NCBI GenBank assembly: GCA_030601865.1
Contig: JAUWAW010000002.1
Location: 7,410-71,409 of the forward strand
Length of the DNA: 64,000 nucleotides
DNA from: Candidatus Nealsonbacteria bacterium
GTDB taxonomy: Bacteria; Patescibacteriota; Minisyncoccia; Minisyncoccales; JAUWAW01
Reading direction: 5' to 3'
Position numbers and translations under genes: made by a program. The notes beneath the pieces were generated by a model that was given only the letters and a program-made list of their open reading frames with translations, was not told the DNA's origin and made no database searches. This document shows, one piece after another, positions 5,960 through 63,471 of the stretch. Within the stretch, counting starts at the first letter, position 1. Every line of letters begins with the position of its first letter.

Positions 5960-7432
5960 TTAGTACTCCAAGAATTTCCATCTTTGGCGGCGGACGAGCC
6001 AATAAGTGAAACAGCCCAAAATTAAGTAAGAAGGTATGAGCCAGAGCCAGGAGATTTCTAAACTTACAGAAGCCCAAGGAATTTGAGAGAACCAATCAAC
6101 TATTTTGACAAGATAACTCAGCAAAAACCAAGCTGGCCAAGAAAGAACCCAGCCCAGGGTTTGCCAGAGCAGACCGCTTAAGCTAAAAACAAAGCCAGAA
6201 ACCATAACATAGGGCAAAATAGGCACAAGTAAAATATTGGTTATGGGCGCCACCAAAGAAAAATAGCCAAAGTTATAAATTAAAAGAGGAAGTGTGAAAA
6301 TTTGAGCTGCCAGAGTCATAACTAAAAGACTTTTCAATTTTCGGAGTTTAAACCTCCAAATATGGATTTTGGCTAGCCAACTTTGAAAAATGGGCATCAG
6401 GTAAATTATGCCGAGAGTAGCTAAAAAAGAAAGTTGGAAACCCACATCAGCTTTCAAAAGCAAAGGGTTTTGAACCAGCATAAAAGTGGCGGCTATGGTT
6501 ATGGCTCTTCCTCCTGTTCTCAGCCGGCCAATTTTTTGAGCCAAAAGCAAAAGCCCGCCCATAATACCGGCTCTAATAGCTGAAGCCGGCGCACCCACCA
6601 TAATAATAAAAAGAACAAGTAGAATGATGGCAAAATAAAAGGCCTGCCCTCTCCAGAGCCCAATTCTTGCACCCAGCCACATTAAAATCTGGCTGAGAAT
6701 AATAATGTGCATGCCAGAAACACAGGTAATATGCCTTACCCCAGCCACATTTAACTTATTCTTCCACTCCTCAGAAATTCTTCGCTTGTCTCCCAAAACT
6801 ATTGCTCCCAGAATTGAACTTTGAGGCGGGGATAATGAACTATAAATACTTTCTCTGAGTTTATTCTTAAAAGATAAGATTTTACTGTAAATAAAATTGC
6901 CTTGATTTTGAGCCAAAATTTCAATCTCTGGCCAATACATTAAAACGTAAATACCATCCTTGGCAAGATAATCTTTGTAGTTAAAATCTTCAAATTCTTG
7001 AGGAAGTTTTAATTTTCCAGTAATTTTTAATTTATCTCCATACTCGTATTCAGGATATTTTCCGGTGGTAACCAAGACCCTGCCCATTTCTTCAACCTTA
7101 ACGGCTAGTTTGATGCTCTTTAACCTGATGTCTGGTTCTTTTACTACCACGCCTAATAAAGTAATTTCTTTTTCTTGGTCGCTCCAGTGTCTTAACTCGC
7201 TCCTCTCAATCTTCAATTGGGCAGATTGGTGCCGCCAAATCCCAGCAACTAAGAAAATCAAACAGAACCCAATGACTGCCACTTTCTTATGCCTCCAAAA
7301 AACAGAAATAAGAAGGATGCCCAAAATTAAAACTCCCAACGTCAAACGTTGGGAGAAAAAAATTATTGAATTGAGAAAAACACCGGCGATAAAAGACAAA
7401 CAAAAATACAGAAAAATCTTAGATTTACTCAT
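5960..7432 (-). CDS. comEC: ComEC/Rec2 DNA internalisation channel (no C-terminal metallo-beta-lactamase domain)
   Basis: Polytopic membrane protein with the competence-domain motif LNVAGVRHITCVSGMHIIIL and an N-terminal OB-like segment. Confidence 0.8.
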   Translation of the reverse strand: MSKSKIFLYFCLSFIAGVFLNSIIFFSQRLTLGVLILGILLISVFWRHKKVAVIGFCLIFLVAGIWRHQSAQLKIERSELRHWSDQEKEITLLGVVVKEPDIRLKSIKLAVKVEEMGRVLVTTGKYPEYEYGDKLKITGKLKLPQEFEDFNYKDYLAKDGIYVLMYWPEIEILAQNQGNFIYSKILSFKNKLRESIYSSLSPPQSSILGAIVLGDKRRISEEWKNKLNVAGVRHITCVSGMHIIILSQILMWLGARIGLWRGQAFYFAIILLVLFIIMVGAPASAIRAGIMGGLLLLAQKIGRLRTGGRAITIAATFMLVQNPLLLKADVGFQLSFLATLGIIYLMPIFQSWLAKIHIWRFKLRKLKSLLVMTLAAQIFTLPLLIYNFGYFSLVAPITNILLVPILPYVMVSGFVFSLSGLLWQTLGWVLSWPAWFLLSYLVKIVDWFSQIPWASVSLEISWLWLIPSYLILGCFTYWLVRRQRWKFLEY

Positions 7433-9244: not shown

Positions 9245-9261
9245 CTTGTCTCTATTATTCT

Positions 9262-9292
9262 ACCAAAAATTCGCCTTTTAGGCGAATTTTTG
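9262..9292. terminator. Hairpin/terminator after the DUF6580 gene
   Basis: CCAAAAATTCGCC-ttta-GGCGAATTTTTGG. The stem sequence resembles inner hairpin 1 of the three-way-junction repeat. Confidence 0.5.
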
Positions 9293-9314
9293 GGAGTTTT
9301 TTGGGGATGGTTTT

Positions 9315-9926
9315 TTACGCATTTTTCACTACAGCTATTTGGGGAACTCTAAATTTTTTTCTCAACCATACTTCTACTATCTCATAAGCTCCGAAAAAAA
9401 CAGTTGTATAAAATAGGTTCCCAATTAAAGTATTTTTGAAAAAAGGAAGAGCCATTAAATAGCATTGCCAGAGACCAGAAAAAGTTTTGGCATACCAGGG
9501 AGTAAAAACCCAAACAGCAAAATTGGTCAGGGCAAAAAATAAAAGAGCTGCCAAAAAAGCGCTGCCACCAATAGTGTACCATTTTTTATGCTTTTTCAGC
9601 CAGAACCCCAAAACCGCGAAAAGCAAAAAACTGCCGTAGACAAAAAACATTAAACTTAATTGGTAAGAACCAATAAACATATCAGAAATTACCATAGCTG
9701 CCATTGGTAAAATCAAGGCAGTTTTTCTGGAAAGATAAACTCCGGCAAACAAAGCAATGGCGGCAATAGGAGCAAAATTCGGCGGATGAGGCAAAAGCCG
9801 CAAACTGACCCCTACGACAATAAACAGCAAAACAATAACAAACTTTACCCCGTTAAATCCGCCAAAGGCGGTGCGGCAAAGCCGCAATTTAACAGGGTTT
9901 ATGATTTTTTCTTTTTGTGAAAACAT
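9315..9926 (-). CDS. DUF6580-like polytopic membrane protein (putative vitamin/B12-related transporter component)
   Basis: LRLLPHPPNFAPIAAIALFAGVYL motif and about 6 TM helices. It lies downstream of the cobalamin riboswitch and the DUF4430 gene. The N-terminal 25 aa are encoded by a repeat copy (9848-9897). Confidence 0.6.
   Translation of the reverse strand: MFSQKEKIINPVKLRLCRTAFGGFNGVKFVIVLLFIVVGVSLRLLPHPPNFAPIAAIALFAGVYLSRKTALILPMAAMVISDMFIGSYQLSLMFFVYGSFLLFAVLGFWLKKHKKWYTIGGSAFLAALLFFALTNFAVWVFTPWYAKTFSGLWQCYLMALPFFKNTLIGNLFYTTVFFGAYEIVEVWLRKKFRVPQIAVVKNA
9848..9897. repeat. Three-way-junction repeat, copy A1 (inside a CDS)
   Basis: CCCCGTTAAAT | CCGCCaaaGGCGG | TGCGGCaaaGCCGCA | ATTTAACAGGG. 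Read through as NPVKLRLCRTAFGGFNGV. Confidence 0.7.
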
Positions 9927-9931
9927 TTTTA

Positions 9932-10035
9932 ATCACCAAGATACAAGATACAATAACCAAACAAATTTCAATAATCAATCACCAAAAGATTTGGTTATTG
10001 GTGTTTGGTTATTGTTTGTTTCTTGTTTCTTGGTT
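9932..10035. repeat. Long imperfect hairpin, copy B1
   Basis: The 5' arm ATCACCAAGATACAAGATACAATAACCAAACA... is mirrored by ...TGTTTGGTTATTGTTTGTTTCTTGTTTCTTGGT. Homologous to 63347-63471. Confidence 0.7.
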
Positions 10036-10038
10036 ACT

Positions 10039-10497
10039 TTAAAAAGCTGATTCCTCAAATCTAAATTCTACTTTGTCGCCTGCTTTCAAAAGCTGTTTAT
10101 CAGCCGCCACAGAAGGCATCTCTCCATTAATATAATATAACCAGTATTTCCCGTCCTGTCCATTTTCTTTGTCTCCAATGGCTTCAATGAACACTCCTAT
10201 ATCTTCGTATGTTTTTGTTTTCAAATCAAGCTCCAATTTTCCAGCTCCCTTTTTCAACAAGTCAAAAGCGCTTGAACCTTTTTTAATCCTAATCTCAAGG
10301 GTCTGAACATTGCCAGAGCCATTATCAATAATTAAAGAATTTTCCTGAAAAAGTTTCTCATAAAGTACCTGACCCATTGAAGCAGCGCTCAAATTCTCTA
10401 TATCTGAACGGATTCTTCCTGCAAAAACACCTACTCCAATAAGAAGGATAACTCCCATTCCTATTAAAATTTTCAAATTTTTGTCTATCATGTTCAT
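10039..10497 (-). CDS. DUF4430 domain protein (transcobalamin/intrinsic-factor-like fold), membrane anchored
   Basis: DGKYWLYYINGEMPSVAADKQLLKAGDKVEFRF is the DUF4430 C-terminal pattern. It is the first gene after a cobalamin riboswitch. Confidence 0.7.
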   Translation of the reverse strand: MNMIDKNLKILIGMGVILLIGVGVFAGRIRSDIENLSAASMGQVLYEKLFQENSLIIDNGSGNVQTLEIRIKKGSSAFDLLKKGAGKLELDLKTKTYEDIGVFIEAIGDKENGQDGKYWLYYINGEMPSVAADKQLLKAGDKVEFRFEESAF

Positions 10498-10503
10498 AAA
10501 TTG

Positions 10504-10699
10504 AAAAAATCCCGCTTCAAGCGAGATAGGATGACCCTACTCTTTACTCGAAGAGAATTAGGTTAAAATTTTTATGGCGGCATTCTGGCTTTTTACCCAG
10601 TTAAATAATTTCGCCTCTGGCGAAATTGCTGCGGAGCAGCATTTAACCGGGTGAACAGTTGCGGTACAGCTCAGGAATTACACCTGATTTCTCACCATT
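10504..10699 (-). promoter_or_regulatory. Cobalamin (B12) riboswitch with terminator expression platform
   Basis: The minus-strand RNA reads GAGAAAUCAGGUGUAAUUCCUGAGCUGUACCGCAACUGU (core GGUG..AAUUCC..GCNG..CCGCNACUGU). B12 box AAGCCAGAAUGCCGCC (plus coords 10576-10590). Terminal CUCGCUUGAAGCGGG + UUUUUU (10504-10525). Confidence 0.65.
10596..10651. repeat. Three-way-junction repeat, copy A2 (embedded in the riboswitch variable region)
   Basis: CCCAGTTAAAT | AATTTCGCCtctGGCGAAATT | GCTGCggaGCAGC | ATTTAACCGGG. Differs from copy A3 at only 3 positions. Confidence 0.75.
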
Positions 10700-10741: not shown

Positions 10742-11434
10742 TTATCTTACCTGACAGACATCAAAAAATGGGGCAATGGCTTTTTGGATTTCTAAAAGAT
10801 ATTTGTTGGGATAAGGTTTTTTCTTTTCAAATTTGGGGTCAATGGTTTTCTCTGGTCTAAAATTCTGTAAATAGTATTTTTGGGCTGGTCCAATCCATTG
10901 AGCGATTTTTAAAATGTCTTCTTTTTTAAGTAAAGGGTTTATGGTCGTGCGGAATTCAAAATCTATTTTTGATTCTTTTAAAATCTTGATGCTCTGCTCT
11001 ATATTCCTTAAACTTACTTTTTTGCCCGTCACTTTTTCATATTTTTCCTTGGACGCTTTAATATCTATGGCTACATAATCTATTAATTTCTTTTCAATTA
11101 AACCCTTTAGTATTTTTGGCTTAGAACCATTGGTATCAAGTTTGACTGAATATCCCAATTTTTTAATTTTCTTAACAAAACTTGGCAATTTTTTATCAAT
11201 GGTTGGCTCGCCACCGCACAAAACAATGCCCTCTAAAAGGTCTTTTCTTTCTTTTAAAAAACTGAAAAAATCTTTTTCCAAAATCCTTGGTTGCTTTTTT
11301 ATTTCAGCGGGCAAAACAAGTTCTCTTGAATAACACCAAGGACAGCGATAATTGCAACCAAGACAAAAAACCGTGCAAGCCAGCTTGCCAGGATAATCAA
11401 TAAGGGTTAATTTTTGAAGACCACCAATTTGCAT
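10742..11434 (-). CDS. nrdG: Anaerobic ribonucleoside-triphosphate reductase activating protein (radical SAM)
   Basis: CNYRCPWC cluster motif. 1-nt overlap with nrdD. Confidence 0.85.
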   Translation of the reverse strand: MQIGGLQKLTLIDYPGKLACTVFCLGCNYRCPWCYSRELVLPAEIKKQPRILEKDFFSFLKERKDLLEGIVLCGGEPTIDKKLPSFVKKIKKLGYSVKLDTNGSKPKILKGLIEKKLIDYVAIDIKASKEKYEKVTGKKVSLRNIEQSIKILKESKIDFEFRTTINPLLKKEDILKIAQWIGPAQKYYLQNFRPEKTIDPKFEKKKPYPNKYLLEIQKAIAPFFDVCQVR

Positions 11435-25358: not shown

Positions 25359-25967
25359 GTGAGCTATAACATCAATAATAATTTTGACAAAACCTTAGCA
25401 AAAGCAGTAAACGTTATTAAACAAGGTAAGGTTTTGCTTTGCCCCTCGGACACGGTTTATGGCTTGATTTGCGACGCCCACAACGAAAAAGCAGTGTGTG
25501 CTCTTTTTGAAATCAAAAAAAGGCCTTTTGAAAAAGCCATTGCTCTTTTTATCAAAGACATTAAAATGGCTAAAAAACATGCCTATATTGATAAAAAACA
25601 AGAAGCGATATTAAAGAAAGTTTGGCCCGGAAAAATAACAGTTATTCTAAAAAGACAAAAAAGTTGCCGACTTCCCAGAATTCTTTTCGCTAATACAAAA
25701 GTAATTGGCCTACGGGTGCCGAATCACAAATTTCTTAATGACTTACTTAAAAAATTAGATGCTCCTTTGGCCGAAACATCAGCTAACATCTCAGGCAAAC
25801 CCGCTTCAACAAAAATAAGAGAAGTTTTAAAGCAATTTGGAAAAGAAAAACGCCAGCCCGATTTAGTTCTGGATGCTGGCGACTTAGAACCTTCTCTTCC
25901 TTCAACCGTCATTGATTTAACCACAAAAAAGATAAAAGTTTTAAGAAAAGGTGCTATTGTTTTTTAA
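25359..25967 (+). CDS. tsaC: L-threonylcarbamoyladenylate synthase (YrdC/TsaC/Sua5 domain)
   Basis: PSDTVYGLICDA, GLRVPNH, ETSANISGKP motifs. The GTG start lies inside a CTCACGATCGTGAG palindrome. Confidence 0.8.
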   Translation: MSYNINNNFDKTLAKAVNVIKQGKVLLCPSDTVYGLICDAHNEKAVCALFEIKKRPFEKAIALFIKDIKMAKKHAYIDKKQEAILKKVWPGKITVILKRQKSCRLPRILFANTKVIGLRVPNHKFLNDLLKKLDAPLAETSANISGKPASTKIREVLKQFGKEKRQPDLVLDAGDLEPSLPSTVIDLTTKKIKVLRKGAIVF

Positions 25968-26106: not shown

Positions 26107-26120
26107 AAAAAAACCAGTTT

Positions 26121-26177
26121 ACCCAGTTAAATAATTTCGCCTTTGGCGAAATTGCTGTGAAGCAGCATTTAACCGGG
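26121..26177. repeat. Three-way-junction repeat, copy A3
   Basis: ACCCAGTTAAAT | AATTTCGCCtttGGCGAAATT | GCTGTgaaGCAGC | ATTTAACCGGGT. Confidence 0.75.
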
Positions 26178-26236
26178 TTTAACCTGTTTAACATAATCAT
26201 TTTGTATTCTAAACTTATTCTACTTTTTTGTCAAAA

Positions 26237-27685
26237 TTACTCTCCTTTAATTACGGCCAAAGGCACCAGTTTTGCCACTTTTTTTGATAAACCAGCATTG
26301 TGCACCACCTCCACAACCTTGTCAACGTCTTTGTAAGCCAAAGGTGCCTCTTCGGAAATACCTCTGAAACTGCGGCATTTAATTATGATTCCTTTTTGCT
26401 TTAATTGATTTACTACCTCCTGTCCAGAAATCGTTCTGGTTGCTTGCCGCCGAGACATTGCTCTGCCCGCTCCATGTGCTGTTGAATAAAATGCCTCTTT
26501 TCCCTGCTCTGTGCCAACCATCACATAAGATGCTGTTCCCATAGTGCCGGGTAGAATCGTAGGTTGGCCGACCTCTTTATATCTTTCCGGAATCTCTAGG
26601 TGTTGGGGCGGGAAAGCCCGCGTTGCTCCTTTGCGATGCACCGCCACCTCAATTTCTTTTCCATCAATAACATACTTTTCTTTTTTGATAATGTTGTGGG
26701 CAACATCGTAAAGAGCTTTCAAAGAAGAAGCTTTTTCTCCTCCCAAAACATCTTTCCATGCCTTACGGATAAAATACGCTATCATTTGCCGATTAGCCCA
26801 AGCATAGTTAGCCGCCGCAGCCATAGCGGCAAAATATCTTTTGCCTTCTGGAGAGCTAAAAGGACAGCAAGCGAATTCTCTGTCTGGAACTTTTATTCCA
26901 TATCTTTGCATAGCAGGAATCATTGTTCTTAAATAATCAGTACAGACCTGATGACCTAAACCACGACTTCCGGTGTGAATCATAATTACAATTTGGTCTT
27001 TAAATAGCCCAAAAACTTTCGCTACTTTTTCATCAAAAATTTCTTCAGCTTTTTGGATCTCCAAGAAATGATTTCCCGAGCCGAGCGTGCCAACCTGGTC
27101 TCTCCCCCTCATTTTTGCTCGTTCAGAAACAGTAGAAACATCTGCCCAATCCAATCTTCCTCCTGCCTCGCAATTCTCAACATCTTCTAGTACACCGTAT
27201 CCCTTTTCTACCAAATGCTTTGCTCCTCCTTCTAAAATCCTGTCTATCTCCTCAATTGACAATTTTACCTTTCTACCTCTTCCCAGTCCCGAAGGCACTT
27301 CTCGTTGAATTGCAGATGCTAAATTTTCCAAATGGGGCTTAATATCCTTTTCAGAATAATCCGATTTCAACAACTTCATTCCGCAATTTATGTCAAAACC
27401 GCACGCTCCAGGCGAGATAATTCCTTCTGGAATTTTAATTGCTCCGACAAACCCAATGGGCACCGAATAACCCTCGTGACAGTCAGGCATCACAATGCCA
27501 TATTTTACTATACCAGGTAAAGTAGTCCCATTTATTAACTGATGTATTGATTCATCTCGAAAAATATTCTCTAGCATCTTCTCCGAAGCATAAATCCTCG
27601 CTGGCACGCGCATATCAGACCGAAAACTTTTGGGAATTTCCCAAAGATAATCGTTAATTTTCTTGAAATCTTTTTTGGAAAGCAT
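26237..27685 (-). CDS. rtcB: RNA-splicing ligase RtcB
   Basis: MPDCHEGYS, GFDINCG, GSGNHF, HTGSRGLGHQV, HNI... motifs of RtcB. Confidence 0.92.
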   Translation of the reverse strand: MLSKKDFKKINDYLWEIPKSFRSDMRVPARIYASEKMLENIFRDESIHQLINGTTLPGIVKYGIVMPDCHEGYSVPIGFVGAIKIPEGIISPGACGFDINCGMKLLKSDYSEKDIKPHLENLASAIQREVPSGLGRGRKVKLSIEEIDRILEGGAKHLVEKGYGVLEDVENCEAGGRLDWADVSTVSERAKMRGRDQVGTLGSGNHFLEIQKAEEIFDEKVAKVFGLFKDQIVIMIHTGSRGLGHQVCTDYLRTMIPAMQRYGIKVPDREFACCPFSSPEGKRYFAAMAAAANYAWANRQMIAYFIRKAWKDVLGGEKASSLKALYDVAHNIIKKEKYVIDGKEIEVAVHRKGATRAFPPQHLEIPERYKEVGQPTILPGTMGTASYVMVGTEQGKEAFYSTAHGAGRAMSRRQATRTISGQEVVNQLKQKGIIIKCRSFRGISEEAPLAYKDVDKVVEVVHNAGLSKKVAKLVPLAVIKGE

Positions 27686-31127: not shown

Positions 31128-31167
31128 AATACGCCATAAGAAAGCCATGGCTTTTTTATGGCGTATT
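31128..31167. repeat. AATACGCC palindrome, copy C2 (inverted relative to C1)
   Basis: AATACGCCATAAGAAAGCCATGGCTTTTTTATGGCGTATT. Confidence 0.75.
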
Positions 31168-54334: not shown

Positions 54335-55471
54335 TTAACTGGCTTTTATGGGCATAATTATGTAAATATAACTAGGATCACCTACTGGTTTAAGGGCGGC
54401 TGGTCCCTCCTCCCCATTTAACTCAAAACTCACCTCTGGGCTTTGGATATTAATTAGACCATCTATTAAAAACCTCCAATTAAAAGATACTTCGGTCATT
54501 TTTCCTTTTGTTTTTCCCTGAACTAAAGATTGGTTTTCCCCAATTTCTGAGCTTTGACTAAAGATTTCCATCTCTTCTTGCGAAGGGTCAATTTTTACTT
54601 TAACCTCATTAATTCTTCCACTAAAAAGACTGGCTGTTTTTAAATGGTTTAAGAATTTTTCTCTAGGTAGAACAATCTGGGTTTCATATTTCTTGGGAAT
54701 AATTTCTTGATAATTCGGGTAATCCCCTTCAATTAAACGGGAAATGAGTTGTAATTGAGGTTGAGAACTCTCTTTAGTCCTAAATTCAAACATAATTTGG
54801 TTGGGGGTTAAATAAATTTTAAGTTTTCCTTTTTTTTCAGAACCAATATTAATCAACTCCTGCACTATTTTCTGGGGAAGAATTAAAGACTGCCCTTGAA
54901 AATTAGATTTTTCAGAACCCGCTTCAAGTAAAAGTGTTTTTTCTGCCAACCTAAAACTATCAGTAGAGGCAAGCTGAACTTGGTTTTTCTGGAAAGCTAA
55001 ATAAATCCCGGAAATTTCTGGCCGAGTTTGATTTAAACTTGCATACTTGTGTACCTGAGCCAATCCCTGACAGAAAGGAGCGCTATTTAATTCAAGAAAT
55101 TCTTTTTCTTCTATTTTAGGGATAATCGGAAACTCATCTGGGTTAAACCCTTTAATTTTGGTTTTAAAACTTTCACCCTTAATATGTAAAATATTATTTA
55201 TTGACTCAAAGGAAATTTTACTTTCTGGTAAAGAACCAATAAAACTCGCTAAAACCTTGGCTGGAATAACTATTTTACCCTCTTTGTCTATTTTAGCTAA
55301 GACCCAGTAGCGAATTCCTATTTCTAGATCAGTAGCAGATAAATTAAGAAAATTACCCTTGGCTGATAATAAGATATTATTAAGAATAGGCAAAGAAAGA
55401 GATTTGGAAACTACTCTTTCTGTAAACCCTAAACCTTTATTTAAATTTTCTTTTAATACTAATAATTTCAT
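54335..55471 (-). CDS. dnaN: DNA polymerase III beta sliding clamp
   Basis: MKLLVLKENLNKGL...SLPILNNILL start, three-domain length, position downstream of dnaA. Confidence 0.9.
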   Translation of the reverse strand: MKLLVLKENLNKGLGFTERVVSKSLSLPILNNILLSAKGNFLNLSATDLEIGIRYWVLAKIDKEGKIVIPAKVLASFIGSLPESKISFESINNILHIKGESFKTKIKGFNPDEFPIIPKIEEKEFLELNSAPFCQGLAQVHKYASLNQTRPEISGIYLAFQKNQVQLASTDSFRLAEKTLLLEAGSEKSNFQGQSLILPQKIVQELINIGSEKKGKLKIYLTPNQIMFEFRTKESSQPQLQLISRLIEGDYPNYQEIIPKKYETQIVLPREKFLNHLKTASLFSGRINEVKVKIDPSQEEMEIFSQSSEIGENQSLVQGKTKGKMTEVSFNWRFLIDGLINIQSPEVSFELNGEEGPAALKPVGDPSYIYIIMPIKAS

Positions 55472-55611
55472 AGTATTTATTATTGTTATTATTATTGGTG
55501 TTAATTATTAATGATTTACCTTTATTTTAAGGGGTAGGAAACAGTTAATTAGCTCTGTTAATAAATTCTGATTTTTCTTTGGATTATAAAAATATTTAAT
55601 TTATCCACAAT
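55472..55611. other. Candidate oriC segment (dnaA-dnaN intergenic, AT-rich, one perfect DnaA box)
   Basis: TTATCCACA at 55601-55609. The remainder is very AT-rich (ATTATTGTTATTATTATTGG...). The dnaA-rpmH spacer has only weak boxes. Confidence 0.4.
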
Positions 55612-56979
55612 TTATAGGGGGTCTAATGAACTATAAATCCTCTGTTTTATATAATTAATTTCTTCAACCAAACTTTCAGATTGTTTTAGTTCTTTTACTA
55701 TCTTCTCATAGGCATAGATGGCAGTAGTATGGTCTTTGCCGCCCAATCTTCTGCCAATAGAAGGATAAGAACTCTTTAAGTTTTCTCTTAATAAATACAT
55801 GGCAATTTGACGAGGCCTGACCACTTCTTTTTTTCTTGAAGAACTTAAAAGGTCGCTTTGTTTTATGTCATAAAATTCAGACACCACCTGAATCACCTTT
55901 TTATAATTTGCTACCTTAGTCGAACCGGTAATTAAATTTTTAAAAAGAGTTTGGACAATCTGAATGTCAGGGGATTGGCTGTTTAGTTTTTGATAAGCAG
56001 CCAATCTATTTAAAGCGCCTTCCAATTGCCGAATATTGTTTTGTACCACAGAAGCAATATATTCTAAGACTTTTTCTGAAAAATCTAATCTTCTCTCTTG
56101 AGTTTTTGTTTTAAGAATGGCCATCCTTGTTTCAAAATCAGGAGAGCCGATGTCAGCAATCATTCCTCCTTCGAAGCGAGATTTCAACCTTTCTTCAAGG
56201 GCCGGGATAGCTTTGGGAGGTCGATCTGAGGAAAGAGCTATTTGCTTGTTTTTTTCATAAAGGGCATTAAAGATATGGAAAAATTCTTCCTGACTTTTAT
56301 CTTTGCCAGCCAAAAACTGAACATCGTCAATAATTAAAACATCGGCTTCCCTGTATTTTATCTTAAAATCTTCAATACTATGATTTTTAATAGCGGCCAC
56401 CAAACCTGAAATAAATTTTTCAGAAGGAATATATTTTATTTTCTTTGAGGGAAAATTCTTCACTACCTCATTGCCAATAGCTTGTAAAAGATGGGTTTTG
56501 CCCAATCCAACACCCCCATAAACAAATAAGGGATTATAGACCACTCCTGGATTTTTAGAGATGGCCCAACCGGCCGCTTGAGCTAATTCATTAAAGGGTC
56601 CCACCACAAAATTCTCAAAGGTATAACGGGGATTGAGATTGGTCTCTGTGTTTATTTGGAGTTCCTGAAACTCAAGCTGGTTATTAATAGAAACGGCTGG
56701 TAAAGAAGTAGGGGCTTCTGCAATTTCAAGACTAGGTTGAGATGTTGTATATTGGATTTCTTTGATTTGGTTGTCTAAACTATGCAGGATTTTTAAAATA
56801 ATTCTATCATATTTATTTTGTAACCACTCCTGAGAGAAATGGCTGGGCACAGAAACAATCACCTTCTTTTTGTTTCTGGAAATAATGTGCGTATCCTTAA
56901 ACCAGGTAGCGAAACTAGCTCGAGAGATATTAAATTGGATTTGGGCAAGAACTGCTTCCCAAAGTTCTTTCTTGTTCAT
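55612..56979 (-). CDS. dnaA: Chromosomal replication initiator DnaA
   Basis: Walker A GGVGLGKTHLL, box VII, and the C-terminal DNA-binding IGRRLGGKDHTTAIYAYEKI. Confidence 0.95.
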   Translation of the reverse strand: MNKKELWEAVLAQIQFNISRASFATWFKDTHIISRNKKKVIVSVPSHFSQEWLQNKYDRIILKILHSLDNQIKEIQYTTSQPSLEIAEAPTSLPAVSINNQLEFQELQINTETNLNPRYTFENFVVGPFNELAQAAGWAISKNPGVVYNPLFVYGGVGLGKTHLLQAIGNEVVKNFPSKKIKYIPSEKFISGLVAAIKNHSIEDFKIKYREADVLIIDDVQFLAGKDKSQEEFFHIFNALYEKNKQIALSSDRPPKAIPALEERLKSRFEGGMIADIGSPDFETRMAILKTKTQERRLDFSEKVLEYIASVVQNNIRQLEGALNRLAAYQKLNSQSPDIQIVQTLFKNLITGSTKVANYKKVIQVVSEFYDIKQSDLLSSSRKKEVVRPRQIAMYLLRENLKSSYPSIGRRLGGKDHTTAIYAYEKIVKELKQSESLVEEINYIKQRIYSSLDPL

Positions 56980-57000
56980 AATAAGTTTATTTTATCATAT

Positions 57001-57033
57001 ATTCGTATGGCGTATTCGTAACGCTATTTACAT
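57001..57033. repeat. 33-nt conserved block upstream of dnaA (copy F6)
   Basis: ATTCGTATGGCGTATTCGTAACGCTATTTACAT. 30/33 identical to 60787-60819. Confidence 0.7.
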
Positions 57034-57137
57034 AATAACAGAAAATCAAGAATAGCCCAAATCCCTCATTTTTGTTAATAACCTGGGGACAAGATGTGGA
57101 ATTTGACTGTATTGCGATTCGGTGTTATATTTAATCT

Positions 57138-57272
57138 ATGTCCATTACTTACCAACCCAAAAGAAAAAAAAGAAAACGCACCCATGGTTTTAGAAAAAGA
57201 AGTAAAACAAAACCAGGCAGAAAGATTTTAACAAGAAGACGTGAGAAAGGCCGCCACAAGCTTACAGTTTAA
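57138..57272 (+). CDS. rpmH: 50S ribosomal protein L34 (not in ORF track, 44 aa)
   Basis: My translation: [44 protein letters not shown]. Canonical L34, upstream of rnpA. Confidence 0.92.
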
Positions 57273-57295
57273 GGTAGAAGTTTAAACATCACATT

Positions 57296-57646
57296 ATGCT
57301 GCCCAAGGAAAATAGATTAAAAAAGAAAAAAGATTTTGAAAATGTTTTTAAAAAAGGAAAAGGATTTAAAGAAAAATTTTTGTTTTTGAAGATAAGAAAA
57401 AATGAATTAAATGTTAACCGATTTGGTTTTGCGGTCAGCTTAAAAGTTTCAAAGAAAGCAGTAGTTCGTAATAAACTTAAAAGGCAACTACGAGAAATAG
57501 TAAAGGCAAAATTGCCTCAAGTAAAACCTGGAATAGATGGGATAATAGTTGTTCTTCCGGGCCTGGAAGATAAAAATTTCCAGCAAATAGAAGAAATAGC
57601 TAATAAATTGTTCAAAAAAGCAAAAATAATTAACAATACGACATAA
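57296..57646 (+). CDS. rnpA: Ribonuclease P protein component
   Basis: LPKENRLKKKKDFENVFKKGK and the RNR-like motif KKAVVRNKLKRQLRE. Confidence 0.88.
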   Translation: MLPKENRLKKKKDFENVFKKGKGFKEKFLFLKIRKNELNVNRFGFAVSLKVSKKAVVRNKLKRQLREIVKAKLPQVKPGIDGIIVVLPGLEDKNFQQIEEIANKLFKKAKIINNTT

Positions 57647-59170: not shown

Positions 59171-59185
59171 TATCTCTGTCAATTT

Positions 59186-59221
59186 TGTGTCAAAATCCTG
59201 CGATCGCAGGATTTTGACACA
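59186..59221. repeat. Perfect 36-nt palindrome centred on GCGATCGC, copy H8
   Basis: Identical to 51910-51945. Confidence 0.85.
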
Positions 59222-59237
59222 GTTTTGAAAGTAGAAA

Positions 59238-59260
59238 CCAGCGAGAACGGTTCTCGCTGG
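59238..59260. terminator. Bidirectional terminator hairpin
   Basis: CCAGCGAGAACggTTCTCGCTGG flanked by A/T runs. Confidence 0.6.
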
Positions 59261-59272
59261 TTTTAATTTTAT

Positions 59273-60840: not shown

Positions 60841-60960
60841 GTTAACCCTGTCAAATAAAAATTCTCCGAATTTTTACGGCTCGCCCTGTTAAATAATTTG
60901 CTTTGCAAATTAAAATCGGAGATTTTATTTAACGGGGCAAGCCGTATTTGACGGGGTTAA
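60841..60960. repeat. Nested three-way-junction repeats (copy A4 inside another copy)
   Basis: Outer copy: GTTAACCCTGTCAAATA | AAAATTCtccGAATTTT | TACGGCT[..]AGCCGTA | TATTTGACGGGGTTAA. Inner copy (60883-60938): GCCCTGTTAAAT | AATTTGCtttGCAAATT | AAAATCggaGATTTT | ATTTAACGGGGC. Confidence 0.75.
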
Positions 60961-63344
60961 TCTGGGCAAGCTCCTCCTTCTACTGTTGGCCCTATTATAG
61001 GATGTACTATAATAGCAATATGGTCTTTCTCCGCCCAAGTAGTCCCGCCGCACCTGTGAATGGTATCCGTTAAGGCACTAATTTTATGTTGGTCTTTAAG
61101 CTCTACAGCATAAGAGAAAGCTACTTCTCTCCAGGGCTTAATAAGGGTACATATCTTTCCATAATGCCAGGAGCCACACTCCCGGACACACTTATCAGGG
61201 TCATTTGACTCACCGCAATTAACTTCCGGATTTTGACAGGGTGGCAATTTACATTTGTCATAGTCACACCCGTCAGTGCCTCCTCTATCTGGAAGGTTCG
61301 GGTCAGAGATTGAACTAATGGGACCAGGATTTATAGGTGCACCTTTAACTGGGTCTGTGTAAATGCACTCAATAACGTCTTTTAGAGCTTGAGTAGCATC
61401 ACTCCATTGTTTTGAAGTTTTAATAAATCCTGCGAATACCCCTGCCTTGTCGCAATCCGGAATTTTATCTGTATCGCAGACCATAGGCCAGGGAGGACCG
61501 CTTGGTTTTTCGGTACAAACCCCTTGGCAACAATAACCAATCGCGCAAGCACCGGTTAGAATAGAACAGTTATTATAAGCGCTACAAGGATTATCTTTAC
61601 AAATTCCAGTGCATGTTGTAGGCACCACTGGTCCTCCTGTTACCTCTCCACAGACAAAGAAATCAATTGGCCCACATTCTTTTATTTTTTGTATTAAATC
61701 CGGTGTTGTTGGGCAGCAGGGAAAGATATCGTAGCCGGGACAATGATCCGGGTTTCCAGTCCATAGATATCCAGTTTCTGTATTATCATATTCTAACATA
61801 GCTTGTATATCCTCGCAAAGATAAAGACCTTGGCCCGTAGAAGCTCTTTTTGTTTCATCTACTATACCGGCTAAAGTAGTATAGTGTTGTCTTAATCCGT
61901 CAGGACACAAAACATCAGAACATATTTCTTCTGGCTTTGGCCCAGCAATTTGCTTTGCCTTTTGTTTTTTCTCGGCAAAGCCATTAGGGAAAGGAGCAGA
62001 GGAATTTTCAGGTTGTTCACAGGGTGCCCCACATTCCCAGGGAGGAATTAGGCCATCGCCTTTGGTGTGGCAGCCCTGAAGATCAGGCAAGCACCAGAAC
62101 TTTGTTATTCTTTCATTTAGTTCTGCTTTAAGAGGAGGAAGAGGAGGAGAGCAAGAGCAATTGACATTTTTACATTGACAGCCATCAGCTGCTGCAGCTA
62201 ATTTATCAATGGCATCATATGCTTGTTTAAGTGGCTCTATGGGAAAGGTAATTTTTTCATATTTTGTCTCTTCTCCCTCTGCCCAGATGCAATAGAAATC
62301 ACGTCCCTCTTCGCAGTCAATTGGCCCGAGCCAATCTTGGACACTCTTGGCATATGAGCAGGGGAAAAGTATTTTTCCTTCATCAGCTATACACTCGTTT
62401 ATATCTTCTTTTGCCTGGTCTAAGGCTAATTTTAATTTATCTGCTGTTAATAAACCCTCGTTAACAACTGTTTCAACTTTGTCTATTGCTTTATTGATCC
62501 CGTTTTCTGCATTTGGTTCTGGGCAGGTTTCTTCTCCGGTATCGCAGAAAGGCGGAGTGCAGTTCCCTGGAGGGTCTGGAAAGGATCGTGATATTGGAAT
62601 TATTATTGGTTCGGTGCCTCCTGGACAACCCAGATCAGTACAAGGTTGGAAACAGTAAAGCCCTATAAATGGGAGAGTTGCCCACGGTTTACAGCAACCG
62701 TCATAAAGACATGGGCCCCATGCTGGTATATTTATTACCATCTCGCCCTCCACTGCAAATTGATATTGACAATTATGTCCTTTGCAGTATTGCCGTGCAT
62801 CGCGCTGTTTGGCGAATTTGGCAAAACTTGTCATTGTTCCTACGACATTTTTTGTTTTAAGAAATTTTATGGTGTCGTCAATTGCCTGGTCTAAATCAAT
62901 TGAGGTAATAACTTTTGGTATTGGCGGAGTAGGAGGTTCTGGCGGTTCTGGTTCTGGAGCTTTGACCACTTCTTCTATGGTTGGTTCTGTTAATTCTACT
63001 AATTCAGGACCAATGGTATTGAGAATTAAAAAAGAAGCCAGCAAAAGCACCAAGCCAATTAAAGCATTGAAGACCTGGCTTTTAGCATCACCCATTTTGC
63101 TGGGGTTGCCCATTGAGGTTAAATAACGAAATCCGCCCACGACAATCATAATGAAAGCAGCTGCTCCGGCGATGACCAGAAACATATTAAAAAGAGCGCC
63201 AACCAAATCTTTCAAAGACATATCTGTTTCAAGGGGCAACCAATCAGGATAGTCAAGTTGGAGAGCGTAGACAGAAGAAGTAAAAGAAAGCCCGAGTAGA
63301 ACGAGAAATGTTATTTGGATTGAATATCTTGAGAGATTAGACAC
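60957..63344 (-). CDS. Pilin-module fusion protein 2: signal peptide + VirB2/TrbC-like pilin module + Pro-rich linker + about 650-aa very Cys-rich ectodomain
   Basis: TSSVYALQLDYPDW...LVGALFNMFLVIAGAAAFIMIVVGGFRYLTSMGNPSKMGDAKSQVFNALIGLVLLLASFLILNTIGPELV, then PEPEPPEPPTPPIP, then dozens of Cys. I prefer the GTG at 63344 (VSNLSRYSIQITFLVLLG, parallel to MTQFSKQLIKTTFIILLG). The track TTG start at 63383 lies in repeat B2. Confidence 0.6.
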   Translation of the reverse strand: MSNLSRYSIQITFLVLLGLSFTSSVYALQLDYPDWLPLETDMSLKDLVGALFNMFLVIAGAAAFIMIVVGGFRYLTSMGNPSKMGDAKSQVFNALIGLVLLLASFLILNTIGPELVELTEPTIEEVVKAPEPEPPEPPTPPIPKVITSIDLDQAIDDTIKFLKTKNVVGTMTSFAKFAKQRDARQYCKGHNCQYQFAVEGEMVINIPAWGPCLYDGCCKPWATLPFIGLYCFQPCTDLGCPGGTEPIIIPISRSFPDPPGNCTPPFCDTGEETCPEPNAENGINKAIDKVETVVNEGLLTADKLKLALDQAKEDINECIADEGKILFPCSYAKSVQDWLGPIDCEEGRDFYCIWAEGEETKYEKITFPIEPLKQAYDAIDKLAAAADGCQCKNVNCSCSPPLPPLKAELNERITKFWCLPDLQGCHTKGDGLIPPWECGAPCEQPENSSAPFPNGFAEKKQKAKQIAGPKPEEICSDVLCPDGLRQHYTTLAGIVDETKRASTGQGLYLCEDIQAMLEYDNTETGYLWTGNPDHCPGYDIFPCCPTTPDLIQKIKECGPIDFFVCGEVTGGPVVPTTCTGICKDNPCSAYNNCSILTGACAIGYCCQGVCTEKPSGPPWPMVCDTDKIPDCDKAGVFAGFIKTSKQWSDATQALKDVIECIYTDPVKGAPINPGPISSISDPNLPDRGGTDGCDYDKCKLPPCQNPEVNCGESNDPDKCVRECGSWHYGKICTLIKPWREVAFSYAVELKDQHKISALTDTIHRCGGTTWAEKDHIAIIVHPIIGPTVEGGACPD

Positions 63345-63346
63345 AG

Positions 63347-63471
63347 AATAATCACCAAGATACAAGAAACAATAACCAAACAAATCTCAATAACCAATAA
63401 CCAAACAGTTTGGTGATTGGTTATTGAAGATTGGTTATTGTTTGTATCTTGTTTCTTGGTGATTGGTTATT
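63347..63471. repeat. Long imperfect hairpin, copy B2
   Basis: AATAATCACCAAGATACAAGAAACAATAACCAAACAAATCTCAATAACCAATAACCAAAC-ag-GTTTGGTGATTGGTTATTGAAGATTGGTTATTGTTTGTATCTTGTTTCTTGGTGATTGGTTATT. Confidence 0.75.

Follow-up and report, generated by a model that had tools for sequence, protein, structure and literature searches.

Rickettsia palindromic elements (RPEs) are selfish palindromic repeats of ~150 bp, reported from Rickettsia, that lie in intergenic DNA and also, with unusual frequency, in frame in housekeeping genes (PMC10969869). The REP/REPIN-RAYT and IS200/IS605 systems are based on recognition of a folded single strand; insertion takes place adjacent to a tetranucleotide, without duplication, and with a strand bias linked to the replication fork (PMC5027513, PMC3201880, PMC5934647). 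The tags of REP sequences are GTAG or CGTC (PMC3733652).

Here we describe a family of short repeats found in a 64,000-nucleotide stretch of DNA from a Candidatus Nealsonbacteria genome (the window, by which we mean the whole stretch analysed). The repeats had been noted in an initial annotation, made from the sequence of the window, as a family folding into a conserved three-way junction. They belong to a real and widespread family of miniature palindromic insertion elements, of which no prior description was found in Rfam or in the literature searched.

Copies of the element in the window

In the 64 kb there are five matches to each of the half-sites CCCNGTYAAAT and ATTTRACNGGG, and these are combined exclusively as five pairs. 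These pairs account for all five copies claimed in the initial annotation, one of which is nested in another (Table 1). The copy that had been placed from 26121 is real, and its measured core is 26122-26177. When every window position was scored, with filters off, by a covariance model derived from 13 copies, no copy beyond the five was detected. Weak extra matches to the model, at 59179-59228, 9254-9311 and 31128-31167, are plain hairpins and not copies of the element.

Table 1. Positions of the element copies, and of the gene that contains c1, in the window
Feature	Extent	Core	Strand	Evidence
c1	9844..9901	9848-9897 (50 nt)	-	sequence, fold, covariance-model match E=1.7e-10
c2	10592..10655	10596-10651 (56 nt)	-	sequence, fold, covariance-model 86 bits
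c3	26118..26181	26122-26177	-	sequence, fold, covariance-model 80.6 bits
c4, nested in c5	60880..60941	60884-60937 (54 nt)	+	sequence, fold, covariance-model 48 bits
c5, outer copy	60842..60960	60846-60956	.	sequence, fold (RNA -54 kcal/mol, z -10.2; DNA z -9.1)
c1 host gene, DUF6580 family membrane protein (PF20221)	9315..9926		-	

Copies c2 and c3 are both intergenic. The first lies between a DUF4430 gene (10039-10497, minus strand) and a radical SAM gene of the anaerobic ribonucleotide reductase activase type (10742-11434, minus strand), and the second between the convergent genes for a Sua5-type protein (25359-25967, plus strand) and RtcB (26237-27685, minus strand). Their cores differ at 3 of 56 positions, in agreement with the description of these two copies as near identical. 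When read on the minus strand, c2 has the flanks that are standard for the family, TTCA-core-TAAA; on the same strand c1 has TAAA at both ends, and c3 is likewise flanked by TAAA/TAAA.

The remaining two copies are nested. The outer copy, c5, has TTAA at both ends and the arms GTCAAAT/ATTTGAC, and its right-hand TTAA holds the stop codon of the gene at 60957-63383 (minus strand). Its first hairpin occupies 60857-60875, and its second hairpin, ACGG...CCGT, has had its loop replaced by c4. On the plus strand c4 is flanked by CTCG and CAAG, which retain the family pattern xTCy...y'AAx', including the C opposite A.

Structure and covariation

The core of the element runs from CCC to GGG and is 42-70 nt long. 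Its ends are perfect 11-nt inverted arms, CCCNGTTAAAT and ATTTAACNGGG, which enclose two short hairpins. For all five window copies, either strand is predicted to fold into a three-way junction made up of an outer helix and two abutting hairpins, with the junction bases all paired. The fold z-scores of these copies range from -4.2 to -10.2 as RNA, and from -5.5 to -9.1 as DNA. The outer helix of the window copies is 11 bp, with the consensus CCCNGTYAAAT/ATTTRACNGGG. The inner-hairpin sequences quoted in the earlier description were correct, and the hairpins of c1, c2/c3, c4 and c5 are mutually unrelated in sequence.

A non-Watson-Crick pair had also been reported at a fixed position in the outer helix. 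All five window copies are indeed mismatched at this N/N' site (C/A, A/C, A/C, T/G and T/G on the plus strand, from c1 to c5), but the mismatch is not family-wide: among 151 copies of other genomes the site is T-A in 80 and C-G in 28, and thus Watson-Crick in 108 of the 151. The asymmetry that does extend to the whole family is TTCA versus TAAA, three pairs outward of the N/N' site.

The wider family confirms that the architecture is constant while the inner stems change by compensation. When 141 copies were chosen by their outer arms alone, two tightly abutting hairpins were found in 86, compared with 0-3 in 20 dinucleotide shuffles. In a model-guided alignment of 150 matches, paired cells make up about 95-97%, and double compensatory changes are seen at 14 of 14 inner pairs. 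The covariation score is 0.37; shuffling the partners lowers it to 0.10, and sliding them to 0.04-0.06. These figures lean towards structure, since the alignment was fitted to the model and includes both strands of many copies. The outer arms covary as well, occurring as GTGAAAT/ATTTCAC, GTTAGAT/ATCTAAC, GTTAAAC/GTTTAAC and GTCAAAT/ATTTGAC. In the inner stems of 48 oriented copies there are 12 mismatches in 610 pairs (6 G.T, 2 A.C and 4 other), so that 98% of pairs are Watson-Crick.

The architecture is its own reverse complement, and on either strand the first loop is mostly TTY and the second mostly RAA. The order of the hairpins is independent of the TTCA...TAAA polarity (25:18). Both orders are found even among near-identical copies in one genome, as in L019 compared with L069, and in copies 1 and 4 of L078. 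Copies from WOR-3 and Bacteroidales have the same arms around interiors without structure.

Quasi-palindromes are subject to mutational 'perfecting' through template switching. A conserved structure need not imply a benefit to the host, and may reflect the needs of copying or the perfecting of quasi-palindromes in this way. Pairing could be kept by selection for copying within element lineages, by selection at the level of the host, or by template-switch correction, and the data fit each of the three alike. One locus, L128, contains a decayed copy in which both arms are mutated and the hairpins are still mostly paired, at the same KsgA codon as the copy in L013. This is either an old inherited insertion in which pairing has been maintained in place, or the result of a second strike at a hot spot. 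The pattern of decay may mean that pairing is kept in place independently of transposition, and we have counted it against the mobile-element reading.

Family size and host range

A collection containing one genome per species was scanned with the pattern ACCCNGTYAAAT-N20-50-ATTTRACNGGGT. At least 120 loci were obtained, compared with ~4 expected by chance. Among the matches listed, the majority are from Patescibacteria and represent many classes, including Parcubacteria lineages, Saccharibacteria, Moranbacteria, Doudnabacteria and Kaiserbacteria. The two-hairpin form is also present in Omnitrophota, Thermodesulfobacteriota (Desulfobacterota), Bacteroidota and others, one example being a 4.1-Mb Desulfatiglandales contig. 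A viral contig collection gave one match only, indicating that the element is not a phage feature. Copy number differs sharply between close relatives: there are 5 copies in the 64 kb of the window, and zero in five loci from related Nealsonbacteria-like genomes, which represent three distinct populations and amount to ~60 kb once redundant sequence is discounted.

Further copies outside the window were thus recovered by the pattern search, and none of the three outcomes that the initial annotation had named in advance as counting against its proposal (no further copies, no supported covariation, or a match to a known Rfam family or to a MITE with a known transposase) was observed. A Patescibacterial source had been guessed for the DNA, and this guess fits, as the nearest homologues of the c1 host gene are from Nealsonbacteria.

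The comparison with Rfam, which had been suggested as a check, gave no family match in the window or in five loci. At gathering thresholds the window yielded four tRNAs only, and no family over the element; at E<=1, the five loci gave only a chance-level match to a microRNA family, far below gathering, over the L092 copy. Literature searches with the arm sequences, and for MITEs or palindromic elements in CPR bacteria, found no description of the element, and the CPR/Patescibacteria literature searched contains no mention of miniature repeats of this kind. One paper, on an archaeal plasmid, did match both arm sequences, but only through the coincidental sequence of a primer.

Insertion footprint

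Four extra bases are conserved on each side of the core, giving TTYA-CCC...GGG-TRAA, and the flank comparison showed no conservation more than 4 nt outside the core. Among 141 copies, 67 have the flanks TTCA/TAAA, which read TTTA...TGAA on the opposite strand. These copies were collected by a scan that itself demanded A...T beside the core; the bias-free subset consists of 16 secondary copies, and these have mostly TTCA on one side, with TAAA, TGAA, CAAG or CAGG on the other. TTCA and TAAA are complementary except for the conserved C opposite A, and fully complementary versions are rare, with five copies each. As the target tetranucleotide, TAAA is far commoner than TGAA, TTAA, CAAG or CAGG.

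The ksgA gene provides a comparison of filled and empty sites. The site is filled in L013 and L128 and empty in L129 and L130; the nearest empty sites are in homologues of 65-77% protein identity, and the comparison includes no near-identical filled and empty pair. The empty sequence is AGR G/CA AAA AAA in L129 and L130, and the filled sequence in L013 is AGA G(TTCA-core)TA AAA AAG. The insert is 60 nt, or 20 codons, equal to the core plus 4 nt, and no host bases are duplicated. In KsgA homologues the distance from GPGxGxLT to VEKD is constant.

Abutting copies show the same unit. Their junction is always GGG-TTCA-CCC, with a 4-nt spacer (L012, L060 and L102, together with two degenerate cases on the other strand). 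Tandem duplication was ruled out as the origin of adjacent copies, as the TTCA at the L102 junction is unlike both of the outer flanks.

A search for target-site duplications had also been proposed. None was found in most copies or in the KsgA comparison, and 66 of 86 copies have no exact direct repeat. A group of 12 copies among the 141, to which c1, c3 and c5 belong, has 4-bp direct repeats, TNAA/TNAA, that resemble a target duplication. These copies may follow the same rule with another tag, or may represent a second insertion mode. Most simply, each insertion would consist of TTCA plus the core and would go in immediately 5' of a TAAA-like site, which remains intact and open to further hits; these boundaries may be shifted by one base. 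The flanks of c4 (CTCG/CAAG) gave a hint that the 4-nt tag pairs with the target as in IS608; this idea was rejected, as other copies flanked by CAAG or CAGG give no support.

Copies translated inside genes

Copy c1 lies within a coding sequence, as had been noted, and is translated as NPVKLRLCRTAFGGFNGV. It is an exact insertion of 18 codons (54 nt, the core plus 4) that is absent from 17 DUF6580 homologues of 68-75% identity. In the wider family, 21 of 141 copies (~15%) are deep inside open reading frames of 150 residues or more. Of these 21, 20 have a core whose length is 2 mod 3, whereas intergenic copies are split 43/28/25 among the three classes (p about 1e-6). Nearly all of the in-gene copies are read in the frame that yields (H/N/Y)PVK...FN(R/G)V, and the translated insert adds 16-22 residues.

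The genes that carry copies are real genes. They encode GatA, KsgA, triosephosphate isomerase (TPI), DNA polymerase I (PolA), FtsZ and UvrC, and also ComEC, RmlD, an aminotransferase of the cysteine desulfurase type, and glycosyltransferases. Homologues of solved structure lack the KsgA and TPI inserts. Within genes, a copy persists only with a core length of 2 mod 3 and an open frame. This observance of frame and stop-codon rules shows that the in-gene copies are translated and not spliced out.

Strand polarity

The strand reading TTCA...TAAA is the sense strand of the host gene or flanking genes in 39 of 46 informative cases (39:7, p=2e-6). The ratio is 11:1 for copies inside genes and 28:6 for those between tandem genes. 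Coding constraint does not explain this polarity, because both orientations have open frames. Target abundance was also rejected as the cause of the orientation bias, since TAAA (560) and TTTA (614) are about equally frequent on the sense strands of the window.

At about 57 kb the window has the gene order dnaN, dnaA, then rnpA, yidC, jag, an arrangement in which oriC is usually set. To the left of dnaA-rnpA, c2 is polar on the minus strand; to the right, c4 is polar on the plus strand, amid minus-strand genes. The opposite polarity of these two copies, on which the comparison rests, fits a choice of strand linked to replication, with the tagged strand as the lagging-strand template.

Search for a mobilising enzyme

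Pfam analysis of 50 open reading frames in the window identified housekeeping genes and one small GIY-YIG protein, and no transposase, integrase, recombinase, HUH/Y1 protein, RAYT or TnpA. When 810 open reading frames from 120 loci were clustered all against all, the only recurrent proteins were EF-G, ABC ATPases and ribosomal proteins. The reading frames lying between pairs of copies in the 120 loci were housekeeping genes, with no RAYT or transposase among them. The 0.9 Mb of loci, together with the window, contained no parent insertion sequence and no arm pair bounding a transposase gene. With neither an enzyme nor a full-length parent found, mobility is inferred from footprints and not observed.

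Discussion

The repeats are probably miniature, non-autonomous palindromic mobile DNA elements. As judged from the sequences compared, the element is dispersed, is present or absent at homologous sites, and has inserted into and beside other copies of itself. We suggest that the form in which it moves or is recognised is folded DNA, single-stranded or cruciform. This would account for the retention of pairing in all three helices despite drift of the sequence, and for the covariation of the arms. The choice of strand may be tied to replication rather than to transcription, the TTCA...TAAA strand being placed on the lagging-strand template. The enzyme would act in trans and be encoded away from the copies. 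Our best guess for such an enzyme is a hairpin-recognising, single-strand nuclease or transposase of the HUH type; an alternative candidate is a tyrosine recombinase with the XerD-like arms as its recognition sites. Taken as a whole, this would be a novel DNA transposition pathway, spanning phyla and especially active in CPR bacteria, in which an enzyme supplied in trans (HUH-like or Xer-like, and possibly a host housekeeping protein) reads the three-way-junction fold instead of a sequence, makes insertions at replication forks that are strand-specific, lie beside TAAA, carry a 4-nt tag and cause no target duplication, and can flip the interior in the manner of parvovirus ends. We put this complete scheme forward tentatively, as a possibility that has more chance of being wrong than right.

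Three other explanations have to be weighed against mobility of a folded element. The repeats might be host DNA sites kept for the sake of the chromosome, with arms that bind an Xer-type tyrosine recombinase, a nucleoid protein or the DNA-uptake machinery. The arm ATTTAACAGGG matches the XerD arm ATTTAACATAA of dif at 8 of 11 positions, and in the dif modules of Acinetobacter the XerD arms face the interior, the same polarity as the arms of the element (PMC12907356). Moreover, the arms are conserved across phyla around variable interiors, the two orders of the interior (flip and flop) are the outcome expected of inversion between inverted recombination sites, and ComEC is encoded in the window. 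However, a dif or pdif site is 28 bp (an 11-bp XerC arm, a 6-bp centre and an 11-bp XerD arm), and membership of this class was rejected as the element has the XerD-like arm only: no XerC-type arm or 6-bp central region lies beside the arms, the flanks are not conserved past 4 nt, and the spacer at tandem junctions is just 4 nt. A useful site would have no need to disrupt essential genes in frame, relatives range from many copies to none, and no recombinase gene lies within the window. The arms also covary with each other, which a protein reading duplex DNA does not require. We therefore consider a host site improbable. The same covariation bears on the idea that the repeats are cut-and-paste MITEs, whose terminal inverted repeats are read as duplex by a DDE transposase and whose hairpins are incidental. 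Perfect 11-nt terminal inverted repeats, small size and dispersed copies (5 in the window, and over 140 in the loci analysed) are all typical of what this idea predicts, as are the same arms around other interiors and the TNAA 4-bp direct repeats at 12 of 141 copies, among them c1, c3 and c5. Compensatory changes between the arms and in both hairpins are nevertheless not expected under duplex recognition, most copies lack a target duplication and the filled and empty sites reveal none, the polarity relative to genes is strong, and 0.9 Mb of loci contain no parent insertion sequence bearing these arms. Cut-and-paste MITEs thus seem quite unlikely to be the explanation.

The third possibility is that the repeats are maintained through selection for an RNA fold, either as small structured non-coding RNAs or as cis-acting elements that serve, for example, as terminators, mRNA stabilisers or processing sites. 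Such RNAs would be consistent with the strong predicted folds and clear covariation, with the intergenic location of most copies and with a polarity that tracks gene direction (39:7), and the ordinary terminator-like hairpins of the window, for example that at 9262-9292, resemble the inner hairpins. RNA helices typically tolerate G.U pairs, yet here G.U pairs are as scarce as A.C mismatches, and on the sense strand the polar position is a destabilising C.A and not U.G. The same fold is formed from both strands. Copies are found between divergent gene starts as well as downstream of genes, and the 15% that lie in genes obey the frame and stop rules, being read by the ribosome and not removed. 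In addition there is no Rfam match in the window and five loci, and ~60 kb from close relatives contains zero copies. Two narrower versions were considered and rejected. If the mismatched N of the window copies were an RNA wobble, the strand bearing G.U would be the minus strand for c1-c3 and the plus strand for c4 and c5, which does not follow transcription, and the site is Watson-Crick in most of the family. An intrinsic terminator is at odds with copies inside genes and between divergent starts, and with a helix that is followed by TAAA or TGAA and not by a T-run. A stable structured RNA, which the initial annotation had allowed for, is thus contradicted by the strand symmetry, the near-pure Watson-Crick stems, the translated copies in genes and the swings in copy number, and there is very little chance that selection on RNA accounts for the family. 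We return to the reading of the repeats as mobile DNA.

On that reading, one lineage with a tiny CPR genome would harbour a mobile repeat at a density of about 5 copies in 64 kb. The element contributes variation in protein length, and is a likely cause of breaks or chimeras in assemblies, the uvrC::ksgA joins of L131 and L132 being examples. Annotation and searches for structured RNAs are also confounded by it, since it has textbook covariation without being an RNA gene. Identification of the enzyme could uncover a new kind of structure-guided DNA insertion and provide a genetic tool for CPR bacteria.

Comparison with known systems

The combination of a three-way junction, covarying arms, insertion of the core plus 4 nt without duplication, a conserved single mismatch and a flip/flop interior fits no described family that we tested. 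Each of the known systems shares part of it.

In integron attC sites the core consensus is GTTRRRY/RYYYAAC, with the boxes in the order AAC...GTT (5'-RYYYAAC ... GTTRRRY-3'); the sites also have L boxes and extrahelical bases, and lie at the boundaries of cassettes beside an integrase. Like attC and the folded CTX phage attP, which tyrosine recombinases use as single strands, the element has structure conserved over sequence, is an imperfect palindrome of the kind read as folded DNA, and has a mismatch that marks the strand; its GTTAAAT/ATTTAAC also fits the attC core consensus. Membership of the attC family was nevertheless rejected, because the order on both strands of the element is GTTAAAT...ATTTAAC, inverted with respect to attC, which puts the loop of the element on the wrong side. 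Unlike attC, the element has no second (L-box) site, 6-8-bp central region, cassette arrays or nearby integrase, and its contexts are housekeeping genes.

The inverted terminal repeat of AAV consists of an outer stem and two small palindromes with 3-nt A/T loops, and occurs in flip and flop forms; it is the telomere of a linear single-stranded genome with hairpin-primed replication. The T-shaped fold, the 3-nt A/T loops and the occurrence of both hairpin orders are shared with this parvovirus repeat. The element differs in being an internal chromosomal repeat of ~60 nt in bacteria.

The likeness to REP/REPIN elements, which RAYT (HUH Y1) transposases mobilise, and to the 'peel and paste' transposition of IS200/IS605 lies in several features: the element is small, hairpin-forming and non-autonomous, it comprises the core plus 4 nt at a TAAA-like target without duplication, its polarity is 39:7, and pairing is conserved over sequence. 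Its tag is TTCA, however, and not GTAG or CGTC. A third helix encloses two mutually unrelated hairpins in the element, whereas a REP is one imperfect palindrome with the tag at its 5' foot and a REPIN is two inverted REPs. The ends of IS200/IS605 elements are not mutual inverted repeats and their subterminal hairpins are conserved, whereas here the ends are perfect inverted repeats and the hairpins are free. Guide tetranucleotides pair with the cleavage sites in IS200/IS605, and pairing of the tag with the target is not general in the element. With respect to IS608, insertion 5' of the target on the strand of the gene direction is a mirror image.

RPEs share the in-frame insertion into unrelated housekeeping genes, by which a peptide is added and the protein is not destroyed. 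They are set apart by their description, as the element has cores of 42-70 nt with a fixed 11-nt arm and its hosts are CPR classes and other phyla. It also has a two-hairpin three-way junction and a 4-nt tag, with no target duplication. The element therefore resembles RPEs in behaviour, and not in architecture or insertion footprint.

Arms enclosing other interiors

Copies from WOR-3 genomes (L026, L063, L080, L085 and L117) and from Bacteroidales (L012, L024, L102 and L115) carry arms and flanks unchanged from those of the family, and the 21-50 nt enclosed by these are unstructured. This suggests that the arms are the common module, combined with different interiors. Four copies were clustered within 500 bp of a Thermodesulfobacteriota contig (L078, 1306-1814); two of the four had compensated arm variants (GTTAAAC/GTTTAAC) and flanks of opposite polarity.

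Surroundings of the copies in the window

Copies c4 and c5 of the element, c4 being nested in c5, are situated between genes for two large pilin-domain proteins, and the upstream gene, which encodes the 808-aa protein, has its stop codon within the TTAA flank of c5. The A+T-rich palindrome between the DUF4430 gene and the DUF6580 gene, host of copy c1, has a DNA fold z of -5.5. These two genes are separated by just 3-10 nt in three related genomes, whereas in the window the palindrome occupies the gap; it looks like a second inserted palindromic element, unrelated to the c1-c5 family. The terminator-like hairpin at 9262, AAAAATTCGCC-TTTTA-GGCGAATTTTT, is very similar both to the first hairpin in c5 and to the long inner hairpin in c2 and c3. 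The GIY-YIG protein is the sole nuclease-like small ORF in the window, with nothing to tie it to the element.

Genes in an order of the replication-origin type were observed at 54335-57646. G+C falls to 0.34 in this region, and the minimum values of cumulative GC skew span approximately from there to the window end.

Features of the window
Feature	Position	Strand	Remarks
GIY-YIG nuclease-domain protein, 86 residues	16468-16728		stand-alone; between tRNA-Ala and tRNA-Arg
dnaN	54335-55471	-	origin-type arrangement
dnaA	55612-56979	-	origin-type arrangement
rnpA	57296-57646	+	divergent from dnaN/dnaA, as are yidC and jag
Large protein, 503 aa	59273-60784		N-terminal type IV secretion pilin domain
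Large protein, 808 aa	60957-63383		N-terminal type IV secretion pilin domain
Branched palindrome, 86 nt	9940-10025		A+T-rich; DUF4430-DUF6580 intergenic gap
Plain hairpins	9262-9292, 31128-31167, 59183-59222, 59233-59265		terminator-like

Copies within ksgA, uvrC and gatA of other genomes

A chimeric ORF in two separate ENA assemblies (37-1326 in both L131 and L132) fuses the N-terminus of UvrC to the C-terminus of KsgA, with the junction exactly at a copy of the element. The junction copy is identical to that in ksgA of locus L013, and the UvrC part bears one further copy. The join reflects either copy-to-copy recombination or a chimera created at the repeat during assembly. A KsgA orthologue (65% identity) contains a decayed copy at the same codon as in L013 (L128, 3190-3260); its arms are CCCGATTAAAT and ATTTAACCGAG, and its hairpins are shorter, with pairing still kept.

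The GatA gene of L005, already host to one copy, has a second insertion of 18 residues (7135-7175). Its coding sequence is a short palindrome, ATCAACCCT...AGGGTTGAT, perhaps a remnant, perhaps a related mini-element. This second insertion has no counterpart in the solved structure of Aquifex GatA.
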